Shown here piece by piece: positions 2,183 through 55,389 of a stretch of DNA of 64,000 bases; position 1 is the stretch's first letter; each line of letters begins with the position of its first letter. Location: contig JAFNIT010000004.1 in NCBI GenBank assembly GCA_017601345.1, positions 379 through 64,378 on the forward strand, in the 5' to 3' direction. The notes beneath the pieces were generated by a model. The model was not told the origin of the DNA and did no database searches. It saw only the letters and a list, made by a program, of their open reading frames with translations. Origin of the DNA: Candidatus Brockarchaeota archaeon. Its GTDB lineage: Archaea; Thermoproteota; EX4484-205; JAAOZP01. A program made the position numbers and the translations under genes.

Positions 2183-3166
2183 TCAAATTATTTCGAGCGG
2201 GATTTTAACGATTCTACCAGTCTTAGCTGACTGATAGGCTGCTAATGCTACTTCAAGAGCTTGCCTTCCACCCATACCCGTGGCTACTGGCTCCTCATCC
2301 TTCTCGATTACTTCTATAAAGCTCTCGATCATCCTCCTATCAGCATCAGCACCGTAATAAGAATAGTATAGTGGGGAACCTGATCTTACAACTGAACGTT
2401 TGATCTAAAAGCATCTATTACCATATAGCCATTCTCACAGAAAATACTCATGTAAACATCGCCCAAAGTCGGGTAGGTGTCAGGCCTAGACCAACTGCAG
2501 TCTATGCTCGCATTAACACCTCTCCTAGTCTTCACCATTATTAGTGCAGCATCCTCAACTCTGAGTTCAGGCCTAATGTTACGTGCAATCCTAGCGTAGA
2601 CGCTTGAATACTTGTCTCCGGTGTACCACCTGATTAAGTCGGCAACGTGAACAGTATGGTCCATTATGCATCATCCACCAGCTAACTCTGGGTCTCCAAA
2701 CCAGAGGTCAGGGCTTACCATGATTGGTTGAAGTTATGGCTAATATTTCCCCAAGAGCTTTAGACTCAAGGATCCCTCTGGCTTTAACAGTAGTATCGTG
2801 ATACCTCATTACGAAAGCTGTTTGAAGCTTAACACCTTTTCTTCTAGCTCTGGAAATAGCGTCGTCAGCATCCTCCAATCGTATTGTTATCGGCTTCCCC
2901 ACGAGAACATGCTTACCCGCTTCTATACATGCAACCATAAGCTCGTAATGCTTAGAGTTTTCCGATGAAATTATTACAGCATCTTCTAAAAGAGTCATGT
3001 AATCATCATAAAGCTTCCTAACGTTGTAGGCGTCCCCAGCCTTGATCAAGCTTTCCCTAGAATTGTCGTATATCGCTTCTAGACTTACGTTAGGGAGTTT
3101 CTTCAAAACCGCAGCATAACTCCAAGCATGAATATGTGCAAACGAAAACATGGCAAACCTGATCAT
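2183..3166 (-). pseudogene. Gfo/Idh/MocA-family oxidoreductase, disrupted (at least 2 frameshifts and 1 in-frame TGA)
   Basis: N-terminal Rossmann part is ORF 2708-3166 and the C-domain is ORF 2386-2664. The tail YYGADADRRMIESFIEVIEKDEEPVATGMGGRQALEVALAAYQSAKTGRIVKIPLEII* lies in a third frame down to 2183. PDLWFGDPELAGG-TGA-CIMDHTVH shows a stop where Gly is expected. Confidence 0.7.
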
Positions 3167-4140
3167 TTACAACACTTCCTCCTCCAACGGTAGCTTGACA
3201 GGCTTACCTGTAAAAATCGATTTCAAACCTTCTTCTCCAGGTACAGGAGGCGGCTCGTTTCTAAGGATCGAGTTGACAAAACACCTGATCTCCAAGTAAT
3301 AACCGTCTTTGAATAGAGGAGTTAATTCCTCCCTTAATCCGCCAGGCCTGTATATCGAAAGGGTCGCTGTCGACTTATTGTCAACGCTAAGCATTCCATG
3401 TGTTCCTGAAACCTCGATAAATGATGTAAGCGGAAACCCATCCGGCATTATCCAGCTTCCTTCAACGTAGCCAAGTGCTCCGTTCTTGAACTTAAGTAGT
3501 GCCTGAACATAGTCAGGCGAAGAAGCGTTCTTATTAAGGTAGCTTCCACCTTGAGCATAAACTTCCTCAACCTCTCCGATGCACCAATTCAAGAAATCAA
3601 CATCATGAATACTAAGGTCAATAAAAACTCCTCCACTCTTATGAACGTCATAATGCCACGAGTCTGGAGTCCATGAAGGAAAAGCAGACTGCCTGCATGC
3701 TCTTTCTAAAACAGGTTCTCCGATTTCTCCTCGTAGAATAAGTTCCTTAGAAGCAAGGTATTCCCCCCAGAATCTTAGCACGTGTGCCACCATAAGTTTT
3801 AAATCGTTTTTCTCAGCCTTTCTCACAATCTGAGAGTCTTAAAGCCATAGGCTTCTCCAAGAGAACGTGTTTCCAGCGTCAAGTGCTTGTAATGCAAAAT
3901 CTCTATGGGTATAGGTGGGCGTACAGATATCAACTATGGAAACATCCTTATCTTGGATTGCTTCAACCGGATTCTTTGAAGCCTTTCTGAAACCATATTT
4001 CTCTTTGAAAAACATCAGCTTCTCCCCGCTTCTGCTGAAACAAGTTACGAGCTCTACCTCAGGGATACGGATCCACCTTTCAGCATGAACATCCCCTATG
4101 AAGCCACATCCTAAAACACATACTCCGAGTTTTCAGTCAT
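3167..4140 (-). pseudogene. Second, tandem Gfo/Idh/MocA-family oxidoreductase, disrupted (frameshifts in the N-terminal third)
   Basis: ATG at 4140 gives MTE, then the frame is lost in an A-run. KLGVCVLGCGFIGDVHAERW...ICTPTYTHRDFALQALDAG lies in another frame, HVLLEKPMALR in a third, and it then returns to ORF 3167-3826 (C-domain). Confidence 0.7.
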
Positions 4141-4189: not shown

Positions 4190-5422
4190 CTAAACTAGCT
4201 CCACTATGTATTCCCGCCCGCGTTTAATCTTCCTTATCAAACCCTTCTTCTGAAGCTCGTTCAAAACCATTGAAGTCTTAGATTTTGAGAAACCTGTAGC
4301 CTCCTTGATCTGCTTCTGGGCCAGCTTGCCTCCTGAGTTTCTGAGGATTCTCAATATCAGCTCTTCGTCTGAAACCATGTATTCCTCGGGTGGCGGCGGT
4401 AATCCTCTCCTGCGACGGTACAGAAGCAGCAGGGTAGAGACTATTATAAGAAGAACGACTACTACTAATAGCAAGGTTGTTATTGGTGGAAGCTTAAGGC
4501 CTTCGGTCTCACCAGATTTTTCGTAAACCGAGAATTCTAGTGGTTGCGAGAACCCGCTGATCTTGTATTTAGAATCAGGCGGTAAGCGCACTGAAACACT
4601 CCACAACCCAGTGATGTTTGGAGTATAGTTGTCTGAGAAATAACCATTCTCTCCAATAGCCACCTCTCTGACTGTTTCTAAGCCATTAGGATTCCTGTAA
4701 ACGATTTGAATAATTAAGTCAGGCACAGGTGGGCTAACCTTTCCATGAATGCTTATGGAAAGACCTTTTTCAACTCTATCGGTGCTTGGCAGAAATTCTT
4801 CGATGGTTAAAACCCTACTTTGGAAAACTAGCTTAGGCTCACCGTCAGAGAAATCGAATTTACCGAACCAAATTTTTTTCGAAGCTTCTTCTCTTGAAGG
4901 AGTTGGGCTTATCAACTTCAGAAAATAATCGTCAACCAGTTCGGAATAATCTATTTCAAGCATCTCGTCTGGAAAAAGATAGAAGCCTCCTTCGAAAACG
5001 TCTCCGATTTCAATCGTGTTAGCTGTCTTAATACCAAAGTTAATCCAAGTGAATCTGTATTCGATAACTCCAAGCTGTTTTAATACCCCTTTTATATCAA
5101 TTTCTAGGCTGAAATCCTCAGCCCGCATTAACCTACCCGTTGTAGAAGATGCTTTGTCAACCATACTGTCTATAGTTGATTTAAAGCTTGAAAGCATATA
5201 TTCCCTGTTAGCACTCTCCATAAACTCTTGGAAATCTGCCTTCTCCTCTTCCGAAGACAATGGTGTTAAAAGCTCTACTATCCACGTTGCTGAAGAATCC
5301 TTATGTAGGATTATCCTGTAATTTGTTTGAAACTCGAATTCTCCATTAACTGGCAGTGATTGCTGTAAAATAAGCATTGCTAAGAATATTGGAATAACTA
5401 ATACGATGGTTTTGCGCAACAT
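4190..5422 (-). CDS. Membrane-anchored winged-helix (MarR/TrmB-like) protein with a large extracytoplasmic domain
   Basis: 410 aa. N-terminal signal/anchor, about 300 aa ectodomain, TM LLLVVVVLLIIVSTLLLLY followed by RRRRG. C-terminal wHTH: ILRILRNSGGKLAQKQIKEATGFSKSKTSMVLNELQKKGLIRKIKRGREYIVELV. Confidence 0.6.
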   Translation of the reverse strand: MLRKTIVLVIPIFLAMLILQQSLPVNGEFEFQTNYRIILHKDSSATWIVELLTPLSSEEEKADFQEFMESANREYMLSSFKSTIDSMVDKASSTTGRLMRAEDFSLEIDIKGVLKQLGVIEYRFTWINFGIKTANTIEIGDVFEGGFYLFPDEMLEIDYSELVDDYFLKLISPTPSREEASKKIWFGKFDFSDGEPKLVFQSRVLTIEEFLPSTDRVEKGLSISIHGKVSPPVPDLIIQIVYRNPNGLETVREVAIGENGYFSDNYTPNITGLWSVSVRLPPDSKYKISGFSQPLEFSVYEKSGETEGLKLPPITTLLLVVVVLLIIVSTLLLLYRRRRGLPPPPEEYMVSDEELILRILRNSGGKLAQKQIKEATGFSKSKTSMVLNELQKKGLIRKIKRGREYIVELV

Positions 5423-5463
5423 TTGAGTTAAAAAAAGAATTCGGAGAAATATAAATCTAGGGG

Positions 5464-6177
5464 TTACTTTTTCCCCTTGCCCCTGCCCTGACCCTTATTC
5501 TGAACCTGCTCCCTAACTCTTTCCCTTACCTCTTCCTTTATCCTCTCGTGAAGCTGCCTCATCTCTTGCTGGAATCTGTGGTTTTCCTCAACGATCTGCC
5601 TTGCAAATCGTTTGTTCTCCTCAGAAATGTTTGCCTGTAACGCCTTCAAGGCTTCTTTACTAGTTTCCTTAGAAAGGCTTAAACGGGTTCTTATTTCAAG
5701 CCTTATTCTGTTCATCTCCATTATGAATTCCTCGCGCGTAATATTGCCCTGCCTTAACATTTCCCTTAACCTTTCCATTTCCCTTTTTCTCTCTTCTATG
5801 CAGAGCCTTGTCTCGCTTCTAGTCTGATTTAACAATCTGAGCCTCTCATACCAAGTGTTTTCTAACATTATTCTTCTCTGAAGCCTAATTCTCAGTAGGT
5901 TTTCCCTATGCGTTTGAGTAATGTTCCTGATTAGTAATGACATATTCTTACCTAAGCAAGACGGTAGTGTTTCATTATCCAACGATATTGTAAAATCGTC
6001 TGTTGGAATCGTAAGATTATCATCGTATTCATTCTCTGTATAGTTCCCATTGTTGGATTCGCCGTTTCCTAAAACTCGTGGAGCAAACGATAGAATTATT
6101 ACAGTTGCAATAAGCATTGCTGTAACCATGAGCAGTATTTTCAAAGCATCCTTTTCACCAGTATTGCAACCATACAT
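5464..6177 (-). CDS. Hypothetical membrane-anchored coiled-coil protein (Arg/Glu-rich)
   Basis: The ORF is open to 6273, but Met33 (6177) is preceded by a GAGGTGG-like RBS and followed by a TM (ILLMVTAMLIATVIILSF). The rest is heptad-like and charged. No family recognised. Confidence 0.45.
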   Translation of the reverse strand: MYGCNTGEKDALKILLMVTAMLIATVIILSFAPRVLGNGESNNGNYTENEYDDNLTIPTDDFTISLDNETLPSCLGKNMSLLIRNITQTHRENLLRIRLQRRIMLENTWYERLRLLNQTRSETRLCIEERKREMERLREMLRQGNITREEFIMEMNRIRLEIRTRLSLSKETSKEALKALQANISEENKRFARQIVEENHRFQQEMRQLHERIKEEVRERVREQVQNKGQGRGKGKK

Positions 6178-49818: not shown

Positions 49819-50592
49819 TTAAATGGCCTGTTCTTGTGCAAACTCTTCACCAGTTCCAAGGATTCTGGTGATCTGCGAATACACTTCTACGAAACCTTCC
49901 ATCGTTACTGCTGAGACAGGTATCGGCTTGTTCAAGCTACTCAAAATAGGAAGTGTTTTCGAAAGCTCCTGTCCTAGTTTCAGCTTCTCACTCCTGTAAG
50001 ATTTGTTAATAGCTTCGTATAGCGTTAATGGATTAGAGTACCATTCGCTAATCCTCTTAACCAGGCGAGGCTCTGCAATGTCCACTTTGTTGATCACGTT
50101 TAGCTGAGGAATAGCGAGCGAGGCGTATACAGATATGCTTAAGTATAATGAAGCTAGAAAGCTGAGCGGCTCGAGCATGATTGCATAGTCGAAGAGGTAT
50201 ATTACCATCCTGGGACCTTCTAAAAAGTGTTCTGAGAAAACTCTTCCAACAGGTCTGAAGGCGAACAATTCTATCTGTCCTGGAGTATCTACAATAGCAA
50301 TCTCATAGCCCATTGTTTCGATCTCCTCGCTAATCTCATGCACTTTCACTGCTATCAGGTCTGAAGCAACCGTGAGTGCACTATTAGGTCCTAACCCAAG
50401 GTCTCTCATAAGCTTCTCAGTACTAACGTAAGTTCTAACGTCGAAGTCAGCAGTATAAGGCAGGTTTACGACACCAGGGTCTAGGTTAATTCTCGCAACG
50501 TCAACGCCCTTACTTTCAATCCATTCAGAAAAGTTTTTTACGAAGGTCGTTTTACCACTTCCTGCAGTACCTATTAAGAAGATGGCTTTCAT
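49819..50592 (-). CDS. GPN-loop GTPase (paralog 2)
   Basis: GTAGSGKTT, LGPNSAL (GPN), DTPGQIE. Confidence 0.8.
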   Translation of the reverse strand: MKAIFLIGTAGSGKTTFVKNFSEWIESKGVDVARINLDPGVVNLPYTADFDVRTYVSTEKLMRDLGLGPNSALTVASDLIAVKVHEISEEIETMGYEIAIVDTPGQIELFAFRPVGRVFSEHFLEGPRMVIYLFDYAIMLEPLSFLASLYLSISVYASLAIPQLNVINKVDIAEPRLVKRISEWYSNPLTLYEAINKSYRSEKLKLGQELSKTLPILSSLNKPIPVSAVTMEGFVEVYSQITRILGTGEEFAQEQAI

Positions 50593-51851
50593 AGAATTAT
50601 CTTCTCCTTAATCCTAGATTCAATGCTTATTCCGTGCAGGGGAAGACCCTCCGCTCTACTCAACGTTTCGATATATCTAGCAGTCTTCTTCAAGTATTTT
50701 GGAGAAAAATACTGGTATGAAACTATTCTGAGATAATCCAGTATTGTTACACCGCCTCTGACTCTTGCATACCCGCCCGTTGGAAGAATGTGATTACTCC
50801 CAGAAACGTAGTCTCCAACCGCTGGCGGTGATGATCCTCCGAGGAAAACGGTGCCGGCTGTCGTGATCCTATTGAACAACTTGGTTGGATTTTTGACCTG
50901 CAGAGAAATATGCTCAGGAGCTAGAAGGTTGCATTTCTCCAAGCCTTCTTCAATAGATTTGACTAAGTATATGTTTATCCTAGTTTTCAAGCTGTATTTC
51001 TTCGAAATCTCCCCGAATATTCTCTCAACGAGCTCAGCTAGGTCTTTTGAATCTGTTATTAAGGCTATGAAAGAATCTGGGGAGTGCTCAGCCTGAGCAG
51101 CTAGATCCAGAGCTACGGATTTTGGGTCTGCACTAGAATCCGCTAGGACAACGAGTTCAGATGGCCCTGCTGGAACATCTATCGAAACACCATAGCTGTT
51201 TGCAATCATCTTTGCTAAGGTAACGAACTTATTTCCCGGGCCAATTATTTTCTCAACTCTCGGAATAGTTTCAGTACCAAAGGTTAAGGCACCGACGCCA
51301 GCAACCATATTACACCGGAAAACTCTTCTTAAGCCCATTAGCTTAGCAGCATATAGAATCGCCGGGTTCACAGAACCATCCTTCCGTGGAGGAGTTAAAA
51401 CCTGGATTTCCTTAACGCCGACCAAGACAGCCGGATAAGCAGCCATAACTATGGTTGAAACATACATGGCCCTTCCTCCGGGGACGAGTATTCCGATTTT
51501 TTCAAGCGGATAGAAACGCATAAAGTATTTTAAACCTCCTTCATTAAGCATTTTTGGAGAGAGCATTCTCATCTGTAAGCCAACTACTTTCCTAATTCTA
51601 CTCATCATGAATAATATTGCTTTTTTAACATCATTCGACAAATACTTTTCAGATTCTTCTAACTCGTCTTGTCCAACCATAAGCCTGTCTTTTGAAAGCT
51701 TAACGTTATCGAAAGGCTTGGGGCGAGAAGTATAGTCTAAGAGCGCTTCGTCTCCCCTCTTTTTAACATCAAGCATTATCTGCTCTACGTAACGCCTCTC
51801 ATCATCACTACTTATATTGAAGGGGCTAAAACGGCTGGTCGAATTACTCAT
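50589..51851 (-). CDS. hisD: Histidinol dehydrogenase
   Basis: 420 aa; AGPSELVVLAD, AQAEHSPDS, GDYVSGSNHILPT. Confidence 0.85.
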   Translation of the reverse strand: MSNSTSRFSPFNISSDDERRYVEQIMLDVKKRGDEALLDYTSRPKPFDNVKLSKDRLMVGQDELEESEKYLSNDVKKAILFMMSRIRKVVGLQMRMLSPKMLNEGGLKYFMRFYPLEKIGILVPGGRAMYVSTIVMAAYPAVLVGVKEIQVLTPPRKDGSVNPAILYAAKLMGLRRVFRCNMVAGVGALTFGTETIPRVEKIIGPGNKFVTLAKMIANSYGVSIDVPAGPSELVVLADSSADPKSVALDLAAQAEHSPDSFIALITDSKDLAELVERIFGEISKKYSLKTRINIYLVKSIEEGLEKCNLLAPEHISLQVKNPTKLFNRITTAGTVFLGGSSPPAVGDYVSGSNHILPTGGYARVRGGVTILDYLRIVSYQYFSPKYLKKTARYIETLSRAEGLPLHGISIESRIKEKIIL

Positions 51852-51958
51852 TTGACAATAGGCTTTTAAAAGTACTTGTCTTTTAAAAGTTACTGAACGA
51901 TATCATTACAGCAAATAAACTATTCATGTGATAGGGAAAAGCAGCTATTTAATGTGGA

Positions 51959-52201
51959 TTACTCTCCTTCAGACTTCTTGCCAAGCCACCATTTTACGAC
52001 TTCCCTCCTCTGCCTTTTCTTCTTCTCTTCATCGCTCTCCATTACCGATTTAAGAAATCTTTCCCTAGTAGTCTTAAGTTCTTCAAATTCGTAGACTCTT
52101 CCACAAGCTTTACAGACGTAAAGCTTGGTGTTTAGTTCATACCTAAGTTCTCCACCGCAATCCGGACAGTAGTAGACGGGCAATCTGTTATTGTCGAGCA
52201 A
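51959..52201 (-). CDS. Small zinc-ribbon protein
   Basis: CPDCGG...CKACG followed by a charged tail; 80 aa. Confidence 0.45.
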   Translation of the reverse strand: MLDNNRLPVYYCPDCGGELRYELNTKLYVCKACGRVYEFEELKTTRERFLKSVMESDEEKKKRQRREVVKWWLGKKSEGE

Positions 52202-52280
52202 TATTGTGTTTAAACTTTTCGTATAAACTTATGGATTGGAAAAAGACGCTAAATACCCTGTTTAACAATGAAAAAACGTA

Positions 52281-52388
52281 TGGGGTCGCCGGGATTTGAA
52301 CCCAGGTCGCCAGCGCCCCTAGCCAGCTACTGCTTCAGGCTGGTATCCTAGACCAAGATGCCCGGTTCAGCCCCTAGACGACGACCCC
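52281..52388 (-). tRNA. Intron-containing tRNA, best model tRNA-Pro(GGG) with two introns (D-loop about 16 nt, anticodon loop 17 nt); alternative parse is tRNA-Phe(GAA)
   Basis: Sense GGGGTCG...CGACCCC-A acceptor, T-arm CTGGG-TTCAAAT-CCCGG, 108 nt. No encoded CCA; followed by a T-run. A strict BHB (h CC/GG, H AGCC/GGCU, bulges UGA and AGG, h' AGC/GCU) excises 52335-52319 and leaves the loop CUGGGGC. Confidence 0.8.
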
Positions 52389-52530
52389 TTGTTTTTCCTG
52401 ACTGCTCAAGCTGTTTAAAAACTTTGTTCCAATGTTGATCACCACTGACTGTTGCTTAAGATTAACAGATGCTTGAACCCAACAATTTTGACACCAATTG
52501 ATTACACGTCGAGCATTAGCACATTAAGAT

Positions 52531-52604
52531 GGAAACGGTGAGGGTGGGGGGAATGCCCTCAGAGATTAGAATCAAACCATACAGAGGGCGCCCTCACCGT
52601 TTCC
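52531..52604. repeat. Inverted pair of ORB-like boxes (GGAAACGGTGAGGG, perfect 14-mers, 46-bp spacer; left copy followed by a G-string)
   Basis: Read directly: GGAAACGGTGAGGG-TGGGGGG...GCCCTC(23 nt)GAGGGC-G-CCCTCACCGTTTCC. About 290 bp upstream of the Orc1/Cdc6-like gene. Confidence 0.45.
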
Positions 52605-52636
52605 CCCAGGTCAGACGTAGACTATTTATATAAATC

Positions 52637-52789
52637 TTACTCTGCGACGATTTGTTTAACTACATTTTTAGAGCGAGATTTCTTCAATATTCTGAAGCCG
52701 CAATAAGGGCATCTAACGCCTCCTCTAAACTCTAACAAATCCTTCTCGTTAAGAACTCTGTTGCAAGATAAGCATTGAAACTCCGGCAT
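52637..52789 (-). CDS. rpoP: DNA-directed RNA polymerase subunit P (Rpo12)
   Basis: Own translation (50 aa, below the ORF-track cut-off): MPEFQCLSCNRVLNEKDLLEFRGGVRCPYCGFRILKKSRSKNVVKQIVAE*. Zinc ribbon CxxC...CPYCG.RIL.K is typical of RpoP. Confidence 0.7.
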   Translation of the reverse strand: MPEFQCLSCNRVLNEKDLLEFRGGVRCPYCGFRILKKSRSKNVVKQIVAE

Positions 52790-52891
52790 TACTCTTTTAC
52801 CTTTAAACAGGGTTTAAAAACATTACTCATTCACTCTACTCTCCCCCTTACATTTTTACAACCGGAATCTAAAAATAAGCATTAACCCTTC

Positions 52892-53914
52892 TTGAGAGAC
52901 ATGCTGGAAAACACTTTATACCCAGAAAAGCTGTGGTTAAGGAAGGAGGAGTATAACAGAATATGGATACTCTTGGAAATGTTCATGGAAAGTATCATTC
53001 CCGTATCCATGTTAGTAATAGTATCTGGCGAGACGGGTAGCGGTAAGACAATGCTTGCCAAAAAGATTATGCTAGATGCAACATCCATGTGGAGAAATCT
53101 TAGAGCAATCTATTTAGATGCTGAGTCTGACGATCGCCACGGCCTTTTTGCATTATTACAAAAAGCTCGGAATCTAAACGGATATTCGGCTGTAGAGATT
53201 CTACATGTCTTAGAGAATAGTGAAAACAAGTTTTTAATAGTAATAGATAATGCTGAAAGCATTGTAGATAAGAGATTTGCCCAAGATCTCTCAAAGATTG
53301 GTGAGGGGTTTCCAAAAGGAGGGTTTTTCCTATTAGTTATTTTCGGTTCGAAAACTATTCCATTTAGTGTTTTAAATATGTCTCCACCTTCATACCCCAT
53401 TTATTTCAGCTCTTATGATCCTAGTGAAATTCGGATGATACTAGATAGTTTTCTTAGTAAAATCGAAAACAGCTCTATGAATAATGATGAAGCTTTAGAT
53501 ATGATAAGTACGGCATCCGGAGGCGATGCGAGCCTCGCACTATCAATTCTTAAACTGGCTTCAAGCATCTCCGGTGGCAAACCCATTTGCAAAAAACAAG
53601 TCTTAGAAGCCTTAAGAAAAATATCTGAAAACCCTTTCATTCGCAATATTAACAGAGTTAATGATCCCCATGCTACAGTTATTCTTAAAGTGCTTTCACA
53701 ATATCCTCAAGGTGTACGTTTAAGGAAGCTTTTTGAGGAATACAGTAAAACCTGCACAGATAATAGAATAAGACCACTTAGGTATACACAGTTATGGAAG
53801 AAGATCAGAATTTTAGAAAGGAAGATGCTTCTAGATTTCCAAGTGGTTAATCTTAAAAGGGGAAGGACAAGTATAGTGAGGGCAAGTTGTCTGAACGGAG
53901 AGACAGCCTTATAA
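52892..53914 (+). CDS. Orc1/Cdc6-like AAA+ protein with degenerate catalytic motifs
   Basis: Walker A SGETGSGKT. Walker B reads LIVIDNAE (DN rather than DE). FSSYDPSEIRMIL; GGDASLALSIL where Orc1 has GDAR. C-terminal WH-like region; 340 aa. Confidence 0.55.
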   Translation: MRDMLENTLYPEKLWLRKEEYNRIWILLEMFMESIIPVSMLVIVSGETGSGKTMLAKKIMLDATSMWRNLRAIYLDAESDDRHGLFALLQKARNLNGYSAVEILHVLENSENKFLIVIDNAESIVDKRFAQDLSKIGEGFPKGGFFLLVIFGSKTIPFSVLNMSPPSYPIYFSSYDPSEIRMILDSFLSKIENSSMNNDEALDMISTASGGDASLALSILKLASSISGGKPICKKQVLEALRKISENPFIRNINRVNDPHATVILKVLSQYPQGVRLRKLFEEYSKTCTDNRIRPLRYTQLWKKIRILERKMLLDFQVVNLKRGRTSIVRASCLNGETAL

Positions 53915-54279
53915 GACTGTTTGAAGAGCTATCAAATTCCGTAAGCACTTCCAGAATATTTTGGAAACTGCTTAAGAATGGGGAGATGAGTATTTCTCAG
54001 ATAATAAGGCAGACTGGTTTAAACCATAAGATAGTGAGAAAAAGCTTAGAAGAAATGATTGCTAAAGGATTTGTAAGAGGAAAATCCTTTGGAAGATTGA
54101 AGATTTATTTTTTGAACAGAGATAATTATAGTATCAGAGTATTGCTCAGTCTTTTAAGTATGCCTCCTCCGGATTTCTCCTCTAAGGATAATCGAGTTGT
54201 AGAGTTCTCTCAAACGGGTATCGCTCAGTCTGTTGAGGACCCTGGTTCTGAAGTTATCGTCTTCAGAAAGGAATCTTAG
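53887..54279 (+). CDS. Small wHTH (ArsR-like) protein
   Basis: IFWKLLKNGEMSISQIIRQTGLNHKIVRKSLEEMIAKGFV. The 3' part overlaps the convergent rfcL end by about 125 nt, so the true stop and extent are uncertain. Confidence 0.4.
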   Translation: MSERRDSLIRLFEELSNSVSTSRIFWKLLKNGEMSISQIIRQTGLNHKIVRKSLEEMIAKGFVRGKSFGRLKIYFLNRDNYSIRVLLSLLSMPPPDFSSKDNRVVEFSQTGIAQSVEDPGSEVIVFRKES

Positions 54280-55389
54280 GAAGGGTACGATTTCCCTCCT
54301 AAAAACAGACTTACCTACATGCAACTCTTTCAAGAAGAAAGATTCTAGCTCCCTGAGGCTTTTCAAATGTTGAATCCTCTTAAACCTCTCCTTAATTCTA
54401 CTCGGAAAGGCAAAGTTGACCTTGTTCTTCTGGGGTATCGCGAGGAAAGCATTGGACAATTTGTGATAGAAAATCGGCAGAAGCCTCCAGGCAGAGTTTT
54501 TAGATATTTGTTTGAGAAGCATGTCTGCCTCAGCCACGTATCTTAATGCTGGGAAGAGCCATTGTTTTGGTGAAAGATGAAGAATGTTTTCGAAAACCCA
54601 TTCAAGCAGGTCCTCAGGTTTTTCCTCTGAAGAGGATAATGATAAGGAGGCCTTTTCCAAGGTTGATGCATAAGTTGCTCCTCTCAATATTTCGAATATG
54701 TTTTTCTCAACATTCCTGTAAGACAATATTTTCTCTGCATCCTCGATGTTAACATCCTCTTGCGCAGAGTATAGAAGCTCCAAATCCTCTATAGCAGCTC
54801 TCATATCTCCTTCTGAATGCTCTGCAATTATCAATAGCACTTCCTGCCTGCATTTAACGCCCTCTGCCTTACATATGTCCCTGAGCCTCTTAACTATGGT
54901 CTGTGGTCTTATTCGATGTAAAGGAATCATGTAAGCCTTGTCCCTTATCTTATAGAGGTGGGGCGCCCACGGGTCGTTAGCAGCCATTACAATGGGTACT
55001 TTCGAGGATTCTATCAGCTCCAGTAGAAAGTTAATTGCATTGGATTCCTCGGCTGAGAGGCCGTCAATCTCATCGAAGAATATTAATACTTTACTGCTGA
55101 AAAGGCTCCTGTTGAGAGCTGCTGGTTTAATAACGTTCTCTAGAAAATCTACCCTTCTTGTCTCGCTTGCATTAGTCTCTATAAGCCTGTAGTTAAACTT
55201 TGAAGCGACTACTTCAACAAGAACAGTCTTCCCCACGCCTGGCGGACCGTGGAGTAATGCTGCTTTTCCACGCTCATCCCATTTTTCAAGCCAATCGATA
55301 AAGTCTTTCTTAGCAGCATCGTTTCCAACTACTTCCTCCAGCGTCTTAGGCTTATGCTTCTCAACCCAACTGAGTCGGGGCACGCTCAT
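54154..55389 (-). CDS. rfcL: Replication factor C large subunit
   Basis: WVEKHKPKTLEEVVGN, HGPPGVGKT, FDEIDG. Confidence 0.85.
   Translation of the reverse strand: MSVPRLSWVEKHKPKTLEEVVGNDAAKKDFIDWLEKWDERGKAALLHGPPGVGKTVLVEVVASKFNYRLIETNASETRRVDFLENVIKPAALNRSLFSSKVLIFFDEIDGLSAEESNAINFLLELIESSKVPIVMAANDPWAPHLYKIRDKAYMIPLHRIRPQTIVKRLRDICKAEGVKCRQEVLLIIAEHSEGDMRAAIEDLELLYSAQEDVNIEDAEKILSYRNVEKNIFEILRGATYASTLEKASLSLSSSEEKPEDLLEWVFENILHLSPKQWLFPALRYVAEADMLLKQISKNSAWRLLPIFYHKLSNAFLAIPQKNKVNFAFPSRIKERFKRIQHLKSLRELESFFLKELHVGKSVFRREIVPFLRFLSEDDNFRTRVLNRLSDTRLRELYNSIILRGEIRRRHT

Follow-up and report, generated by a model that had tools for sequence, protein, structure and literature searches.

A conserved inverted repeat near a divergent Orc1/Cdc6-like gene of a Brockarchaeota-related archaeon is probably a small RNA gene rather than a replication origin

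Does a perfect inverted repeat close to a gene of the replication initiator family mark an origin of replication, or does it have another function? The question is raised by a 64,000-nucleotide (nt) stretch of contig JAFNIT010000004.1 (hereafter the window), which comes from an uncultured hot-spring archaeon related to Candidatus Brockarchaeota. Two 14-nt arms are located there between a tRNA gene and an rpoP-like gene, and beyond rpoP lies an open reading frame (ORF) for a divergent Orc1/Cdc6-like protein, which we call OrcL. An earlier note on this DNA read the arms as a pair of origin recognition boxes (ORBs), that is, as a candidate origin, and offered a hairpin RNA as an alternative. We propose that the inverted repeat encodes the terminal stem of an RNA whose small gene, on the minus strand, has its own promoter, and that this RNA is, in the clade of the source genome, antisense to the translation start of a membrane-protein gene on another contig, C16; to this reading as a whole we assign a probability of about 0.65. 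We hold with good confidence that the element is a gene for an RNA and not an origin, and regulation of the C16 gene by the RNA is put forward tentatively, at a little under even odds. Below, G000 denotes the source genome, and contig names such as C13 and C16 refer to its assembly unless another genome is prefixed.

The left arm, GGAAACGGTGAGGG, occupies positions 52531-52544, and its exact reverse complement follows at 52591-52604 after 46 nt. The arms read AAGATGGAAACGG and CTGGGGGAAACGG, and a repeat search returned the same inverted pair (14 nt, 100% complementary). The run TGGGGGG comes directly after the left arm (52545-52551), a nested pair, GCCCTC and GAGGGC, is found between the arms, and the sequence TTTATATAAA lies to the right (Table 1). 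When the sequence was reread and the repeat search was consulted, every coordinate that the earlier note gives for these pieces proved correct, and the AT-rich flanks that it describes turned out to be moderately so, with 30 to 38% GC against 43% in the genome. The repeat itself has 57% GC, and the 46-bp spacer has 52%. By our own estimate, chance would produce a perfect 14-nt inverted pair within ~100 nt about 0.02 times per 64 kb. In the whole assembly (1.18 Mb, 36 contigs), no copy of the 14-mer beyond the two arms was detected at 0 or 1 mismatch, and therefore it is not a dispersed repeat. Either strand folds with an energy of about -38 kcal/mol (z = -3.8), and none of 200 shuffled sequences folded as well.

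The host could be placed by its RFC small subunit, which is 94 to 99% identical to proteins of hot-spring metagenome-assembled genomes labelled Thermoproteota or Candidatus Brockarchaeota. We found the element, ~77 nt long, in 16 of the 17 genomes of the genus examined, in single copy and always between rpoP and the tRNA gene. A BLAST search with 52500-52640 gave matches in 15 of 16 same-genus relatives, mostly restricted to positions 32-107 of the query, i.e., the hairpin itself, at 74 to 94% nucleotide identity; in the same genomes, amino acid identity goes down to 42 to 46% for OrcL and is 66% for RpoP. The left flank could not be aligned, and the right flank keeps only TTTATATAAA and the rpoP stop codon. 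A covariance model (R1) built from the 16 copies detected the element once in every one of 14 sampled genomes of the genus, the source genome included, and under strict filters it detected no homolog in 137 other genomes of the phylum, where the single match was at chance level. Besides, ten metagenome contigs of the Joint Genome Institute bear the element, four of which are new variants. A search of Rfam 15 over 50000-55000, at E values up to 1, returned tRNA only and nothing at the element.

All copies share one shape, consisting of a terminal stem of 14 to 16 bp, a joint of 1 to 3 nt, an inner stem of 6 bp, and a loop of 23 to 29 nt. The joint and the loop are rich in substitutions and 1-nt insertions or deletions (indels), and the apical loop varies in length and sequence outside the motif UGAUUCUA; all variants have AU(U)CCCCC(C)A as the internal loop on the 3' side. 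Pairing was counted on a hand-registered alignment of 20 pairs in 16 genomes; the alignment fitted to the model mis-registers helix 2 in nine sequences. All 320 stem cells hold standard pairs, with zero disruptive changes, and helix 1 is 100% paired on the model-fitted alignment as well. Seven genomes have C-G as the second pair of helix 2 and nine have U-A, which is a compensatory change, and in helix 1 one pair passes from U-A through U·G (G011) to C-G (G003), a compensatory change with its intermediate. The arms show three further one-sided changes (one in G015 and two in G003), and nine genomes have an additional pair at the base of the stem; all of these are G·U on the minus strand, whereas on the plus strand each would give an A·C mismatch. 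In the alignment of the 16 genomes, no conserved promoter was seen on the plus strand.

Several classes of structured RNA were tried and rejected as identities for the element. No ACA follows the stem, and the 5' side of the internal loop has only 1 to 3 nt, which speaks against an H/ACA guide; the RUGAUGA/CUGA pairs of a C/D guide are absent; and kink-turn and bulge-helix-bulge readings were ruled out by inspecting the conserved structure.

The TATA box is conserved in all 16 genomes and in all metagenome variants, and the distance from its first T to the first base of the stem is 30 to 31 nt everywhere, across a spacer whose sequence is not conserved. Because TTTATATAAA, which sits directly after the rpoP stop codon, is palindromic, its direction must be taken from the context. 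In the same genome, boxes of the TTTATATA or TTTAAAA type stand at an equal distance from the tRNA genes, with purine-rich bases before them. With the spacing between TATA box and start that is usual in archaea, transcription from this box would start at ~52604-52607, i.e., at the base of the stem. A scan for bacterial-type promoters and terminators, which is irrelevant to an archaeon, found nothing at the element. Thus, what the earlier note had offered as the alternative, a minus-strand hairpin RNA of ~74 nt transcribed from a TATA-like box ~25 nt away, is backed by comparative evidence.

Table 1. Positions of the predicted RNA, its parts, its promoter and its neighbouring genes in the window
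Feature	Position	Strand	Remarks	Basis
Predicted small non-coding RNA, ~77 nt	52531..52607	minus	5' end predicted at 52604-52607; 3' end at or just past 52531	conservation and fold
Helix 1, 5' arm, RNA GGAAACGGUGAGGG	52591..52604	minus	14/14 pairs standard in 16/16 sequences	
Helix 1, 3' arm, RNA CCCUCACCGUUUCC	52531..52544	minus	also within the stretch antisense to the target 5' untranslated region	
Helix 2, 5' arm, GCCCUC	52584..52589	minus	compensatory change at second pair	
Helix 2, 3' arm, GAGGGC	52555..52560	minus	compensatory change	
Apical loop, 23 nt, conserved motif UGAUUCUA	52561..52583	minus	3' part antisense to target codons 3-7	
Asymmetric internal loop AUUCCCCCCA, anti-AUG and anti-G-rich Shine-Dalgarno	52545..52554	minus	would pair with target GGGGGGAAUG	
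RNA stretch antisense to the C16 translation start	52537..52571	minus		BLAST, alignment, duplex energy
TATA box TTTATATAAA of the RNA gene	52625..52634	minus	purine-rich bases like a B recognition element just upstream, overlapping the rpoP stop codon	
Intron-containing tRNA gene	52281-52390	minus	downstream neighbour; own TATA-like box at ~52414-52422	Rfam, ARAGORN with intron search
rpoP-like gene, 50 aa, zinc ribbon	52637-52789	minus	upstream neighbour on the same strand	weak Pfam match to Zn_ribbon_RPAB4
OrcL, divergent Orc1/Cdc6-like ORF, 340 aa	52892-53914	plus		TIGR02928, 63 bits (cut-off 181); Pfam Cdc6_C, 26 bits
TrmB-like winged-helix gene	53887-54279		conserved neighbour	

We further searched the source genome for sequences resembling the element and obtained a single second match, at G000:C16:38943-38982 (BLAST, E = 4e-5); in G004, G013, G014, and G015, too, this was the only other place resembling the element. 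The match covers the 5' untranslated region and the start of a gene (G000:C16:38961-39314, outside the window). This gene encodes a protein of 118 amino acids (aa) that has one predicted N-terminal transmembrane helix, judged from a hydrophobic stretch, and no Pfam match, and it is followed by a gene for a surface protein with a CarboxypepD_reg domain in what appears to be a surface-protein operon. The antisense stretch of the RNA begins in the 3' part of the loop, runs on through the 3' strand of the inner stem and the C-rich internal loop, and ends within the 3' arm. The paired target sequence is GGGGAGGGGUUGGGGGGAAUG-AGG-CCCUCAGAGAUUAGAA, with a 3-nt bulge, and takes in the 5' untranslated region (UTR), a G-rich Shine-Dalgarno sequence, the AUG, and codons 3 to 7, ~35 nt in total. 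The duplex in the source genome has a calculated energy of -67 kcal/mol, compared with -39 ± 5 for shuffles, and the duplexes of the six genomes with the antisense match (G000, G004, G013, G014, G015, and G003) range from -64 to -75 kcal/mol, compared with -34 to -43 (standard deviation ~4.5) for shuffled RNAs. In G003, the most divergent of the six, two changes are found in both the RNA and the target, namely, AUUAGA to AUCAGA and GGGGGGAAUG to GGGGGGAUG (AAUG to AUG), and G013 has a change that preserves a G·U in the duplex between RNA and target.

Based on these data, the 3' half of the RNA would pair with ~35 nt of the C16 mRNA, from the 5' UTR over the Shine-Dalgarno sequence and the AUG into the first seven codons, and the pairing would most likely mask the ribosome binding site (RBS), as the anti-RBS small RNAs of Methanosarcina do. 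For the target, too, a hairpin is predicted in the start region, with a loop complementary to that of the RNA, and a loop-loop first contact between the two molecules is possible in such a model. What the analysis shows is the conservation, structure, and strand of the element, the geometry of its promoter, and the complementarity to the target together with its co-variation; we infer transcription, the ends of the RNA, and the sign of the regulation from the sequence only.

Two observations on the DNA of the two loci may be recorded here. The plus strand at 52545-52636 resembles a translation start, in that GGGUGGGGGGAAUG is followed by a 26-codon ORF (MPSEIRIKPY...) that mirrors the start of the C16 protein (MRPSEIRSLK...). 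As a coding sequence, this ORF with its upstream G-rich Shine-Dalgarno sequence was rejected: the frame is broken by 1-nt indels between close relatives, even between genomes with 94% identity over the element; such indels are found between G000 and G004 and also in G015 and G007. Upstream of the C16 gene, a motif GTTTGTAAAC...(A/G)TTATGAAACAAT was found ~30 to 60 nt before the TATA-like box (positions ~1410-1470 of locus L104) in 14 of 14 genomes; it is present also where the antisense match is lacking, and it may be a transcription factor site.

Several points weigh against the proposed reading. Eight other genomes of the genus have both the RNA and an ortholog of the target, and in these the start region has only GGGGAUG in common with the RNA, the duplex energies are within the range of the shuffles, and no other long target match was obtained. 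Therefore, the antisense relation is specific to one clade, and the ancestral function of the RNA was not the one proposed here. The DNA segments of the RNA gene and the C16 start look like paralogs in sequence, and the changes shared by RNA and target could stem from gene conversion between such paralogous segments and not from selection for pairing. With the predicted folding of the target start region, the regulation might be of either sign. In the genus copies, no conserved oligo-T terminator lies past the stem to define the 3' end of the RNA. In a shuffle control run on the mis-registered, model-fitted alignment, 60 of 500 shuffles scored at least as high as the real alignment, which is not significant; the covariation is real but thin, amounting to two independent compensatory events. 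Finally, the sequence of helix 1 is almost invariant in all 20 variants, beyond what the structure needs, and an additional constraint is likely, either a protein that binds the stem or a role at the DNA level.

The clade-specific match suggests one rival explanation, according to which the element encodes a stable structured RNA with a role other than antisense pairing, e.g., as a protein scaffold, and the C16 match is the by-product of a duplication in a single clade. This would agree with the retention of the RNA in the eight genomes without the target match, with the conservation of the stem sequence and the loop motif in both clades, and with the paralog-like manner in which the locus of the RNA can be aligned with the 5' region of the C16 gene over ~40 to 60 nt, including an inner hairpin. 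However, the match falls exactly on the Shine-Dalgarno sequence, the AUG, and the first codons, and six genomes maintain it although two changes occurred in both partners and a further one gave G·U; in addition, no candidate protein partner and no match to a known RNA family in Rfam were found. We consider this explanation unlikely.

A second rival, which we also regard as unlikely, takes the repeat as a palindromic DNA operator for a dimeric regulator, either OrcL or the TrmB-like protein, a function with which transcription would be compatible. Since both arms of helix 1 are nearly invariant across the genus, more so than a structural stem requires, the DNA palindrome stays alive as a rival, and the winged-helix gene and OrcL are indeed conserved neighbours. 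Nevertheless, an operator would not usually have half-sites 46 bp apart around a conserved, covarying inner helix, pairing in RNA is indicated by the compensatory change in G003 and by the G·U pairs confined to one strand, and the fixed distance to the TATA box locates the stem where a transcript begins and not over the promoter.

A plainer possibility is that the hairpin belongs to the 3' UTR of the rpoP mRNA or serves as its terminator, with no function of its own, as might be supposed from its position 28 nt past the rpoP stop codon on the same strand in every genome. Termination in archaea depends on oligo-T runs and not on hairpins, however, and no conserved T-run comes after this stem. 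Moreover, a perfectly conserved TATA box stands at promoter distance between the stop codon and the stem, and a conserved loop, a C-rich bulge, and a long match to the start of another gene would all be unexpected in a terminator, so that this account is quite improbable. We also considered a dual role for the antisense RNA gene, in which the near-invariant arms, similar to the GGAAAYG and G-string half of an ORB, are recognised by OrcL, a degenerate paralog, either as a DNA palindrome or as an RNA stem; the idea arises because OrcL and the RNA both occur only in this genus and are always neighbours. It is highly speculative, as is the scenario within it that a retired replication initiator came to govern a small regulatory RNA or to act together with it.

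As for the origin itself, ORB and mini-ORB repeats have a conserved core, TTCC...GAA, e.g., TTCCAGTGGAAA and TTCCAGTGGAACT (PMC1904270). The likeness of the arms to an ORB that the earlier note pointed out is real for one half, GGAAAYG with a G-string, but stops there: the arms carry only GGAAAC and the G-rich half, they have no TTCC, and the bases at the TTCC positions are not conserved among the 16 genomes. Where an origin would have an AT-rich region for unwinding, the spacer holds a conserved helix. Neither GC nor AT skew switches at the locus, and skew follows gene orientation and is uninformative in the window.

A better candidate was found on C13, where the canonical Orc1 of this genome is encoded (C13:1138-2358, minus strand; 406 aa; 385 bits on TIGR02928, for which the cut-off is 181). 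Beside it lies an intergenic region of 627 bp (C13:2359-2985, outside the window) with 31% GC, which contains three exact TTCCAnTrGAAAT cores within 290 bp (at 2643, 2813, and 2917), out of seven in the whole genome, as well as TCATTCCAATGGAAATGAAGGGGTGCGAGT and its partner, an inverted ORB pair of 30 nt that flanks a 129-bp spacer of 28% GC. The ORB sequence of this genome is TTCCAATGGAAATGAAGGGGTG, and the other GGAAACGG sites in the genome are scattered and single. Of 16 relatives, 10 have this C13 region conserved; in G003 it adjoins an ORF of the Orc1 family. Judged from these features, the C13 region beside orc1 is likely to be the canonical replication origin.

The origin reading of the repeat in the earlier note is accordingly not upheld, with no TTCC...GGAA dyad, no AT-rich spacer, and two copies only, with G·U pairs on one strand, and with the canonical origin on C13. 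Of all the readings we weighed, the least probable is that the arms are the boxes of a second origin specified by OrcL: they resemble the GGAAAYG and G-string half of the genome's own ORBs, the element and OrcL are both genus-restricted and always syntenic, replisome genes lie downstream, and in archaea multiple Orc1 paralogs often go together with multiple origins whose boxes differ (PMC4010727), but the TTCC half of the published core (PMC1904270) is missing and the bases there are unconserved, the spacer of 46 bp and 52% GC with its covarying helix differs from that of 129 bp and 28% GC on C13, no other conserved repeat joins the two copies in the flanks, recognition of duplex DNA does not require that G·U be kept on one strand, rpoP separates the repeat from OrcL, OrcL scores far below the cut-off of the Orc1 family, and there is no skew switch, uninformative as skew is here.

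The neighbourhood outlined in the earlier note (a tRNA, rpoP, the Orc1/Cdc6-like gene, and replisome genes) matches the results of our gene and family searches. The start of OrcL is 288 bp from the repeat, with rpoP in between, and after OrcL and the TrmB-like gene come RFC-L, RFC-S, and GINS. The order HisD, zinc-ribbon protein, tRNA, hairpin, rpoP, OrcL, winged helix-turn-helix gene, and RFC-L is maintained in 16 of 16 genomes. OrcL orthologs are confined to the genus; OrcL is a divergent, genus-specific paralog and, by its family scores, not the canonical initiator.

The genus has three genes of the Orc1/Cdc6 family, i.e., the canonical one, a second paralog, and OrcL. The second paralog (371 to 378 aa; 168 bits on TIGR02928), located at 2884-3999 of locus L156 in the close relative G004 (G004:C9), has its start 4 nt ahead of the stop codon of a gene resembling isopropylmalate dehydrogenase, and no origin-type intergenic region or origin-type repeats were seen around it on G004:C9. 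Near it, the same locus has two direct repeats of 132 nt (5158-5289 and 5385-5516) that are 100% identical and 227 nt apart, which may be either an assembly artefact or a real tandem duplication.

With regard to tRNA genes, ARAGORN at default settings reported zero in the 64-kb window, and with its intron search it called the neighbour of the element tRNA-Ala(GGC) with a 13-nt intron, an identity that is the tool's own and tentative. The same intron search gives a tRNA with the anticodon CTA (labelled Pyl) and a 14-nt intron at G000:C30:13559-13648 (plus strand), outside the window; this may be a tRNA that reads amber codons or an intron-containing tRNA that was mis-parsed.

Among known systems, the closest in working principle would be sRNA154 (through its loop 2, on glnA2) and sRNA41 (on the ACDS operon) of Methanosarcina mazei, which are anti-RBS small RNAs (PMC5867862). 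Like them, the predicted RNA has its own promoter, a stable fold, and an unpaired anti-RBS sequence, and its target, here a predicted one, is encoded elsewhere. In contrast, it has no homology to them in sequence or structure, its complementarity is much longer (~35 nt, reaching over the 5' UTR, the AUG, and seven codons) and concerns a single gene, and it comes from an uncultured relative of Brockarchaeota, where the match occurs in one clade and is known from sequence alone. Judged by the absence of homology to the M. mazei cases or to any Rfam family, the element would be a new family of small RNAs of a known type.

CopA/CopT, Sok/hok, and IstR/tisB are antisense RNA systems of plasmids and type I toxin-antitoxin modules that use loop-loop contacts. 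The present case is like these in having a long antisense stem-loop directed at the site where translation of a small membrane protein starts, and in a predicted hairpin with a complementary loop in the C16 target region. It differs in that the RNA gene and its target are on separate contigs, neither overlapping nor adjacent, and in that the target has 118 aa and belongs to an apparent surface-protein operon, with no evidence of toxicity. To our knowledge, no such system has been established in archaea. With archaeal origins such as Sulfolobus oriC1, Aeropyrum Ori1, and Pyrococcus oriC (PMC4010727, PMC1904270, PMC8287685), the element shares an inverted pair of GGAAAC with G-rich sequence and the proximity to an Orc1/Cdc6-family gene and replisome genes. 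Unlike them, it lacks a TTCC half-site and an AT-rich stretch between its repeats, has only two copies, and shows compensatory changes of the RNA type.

Thus, a false origin call is removed, and the likely true origin of this lineage is put on C13 beside the canonical orc1. Small RNAs of this type are common, and the finding is ordinary in kind and overturns no current view. No described regulatory RNA turned up for this archaeal group, to which the element would add an uncatalogued, genus-specific family of small RNAs with an explicit and testable mRNA target. An RNA and a target that share ancestry and change together in one clade would present a natural case of the origin and co-evolution of a trans-acting antisense regulator and its target in archaea.

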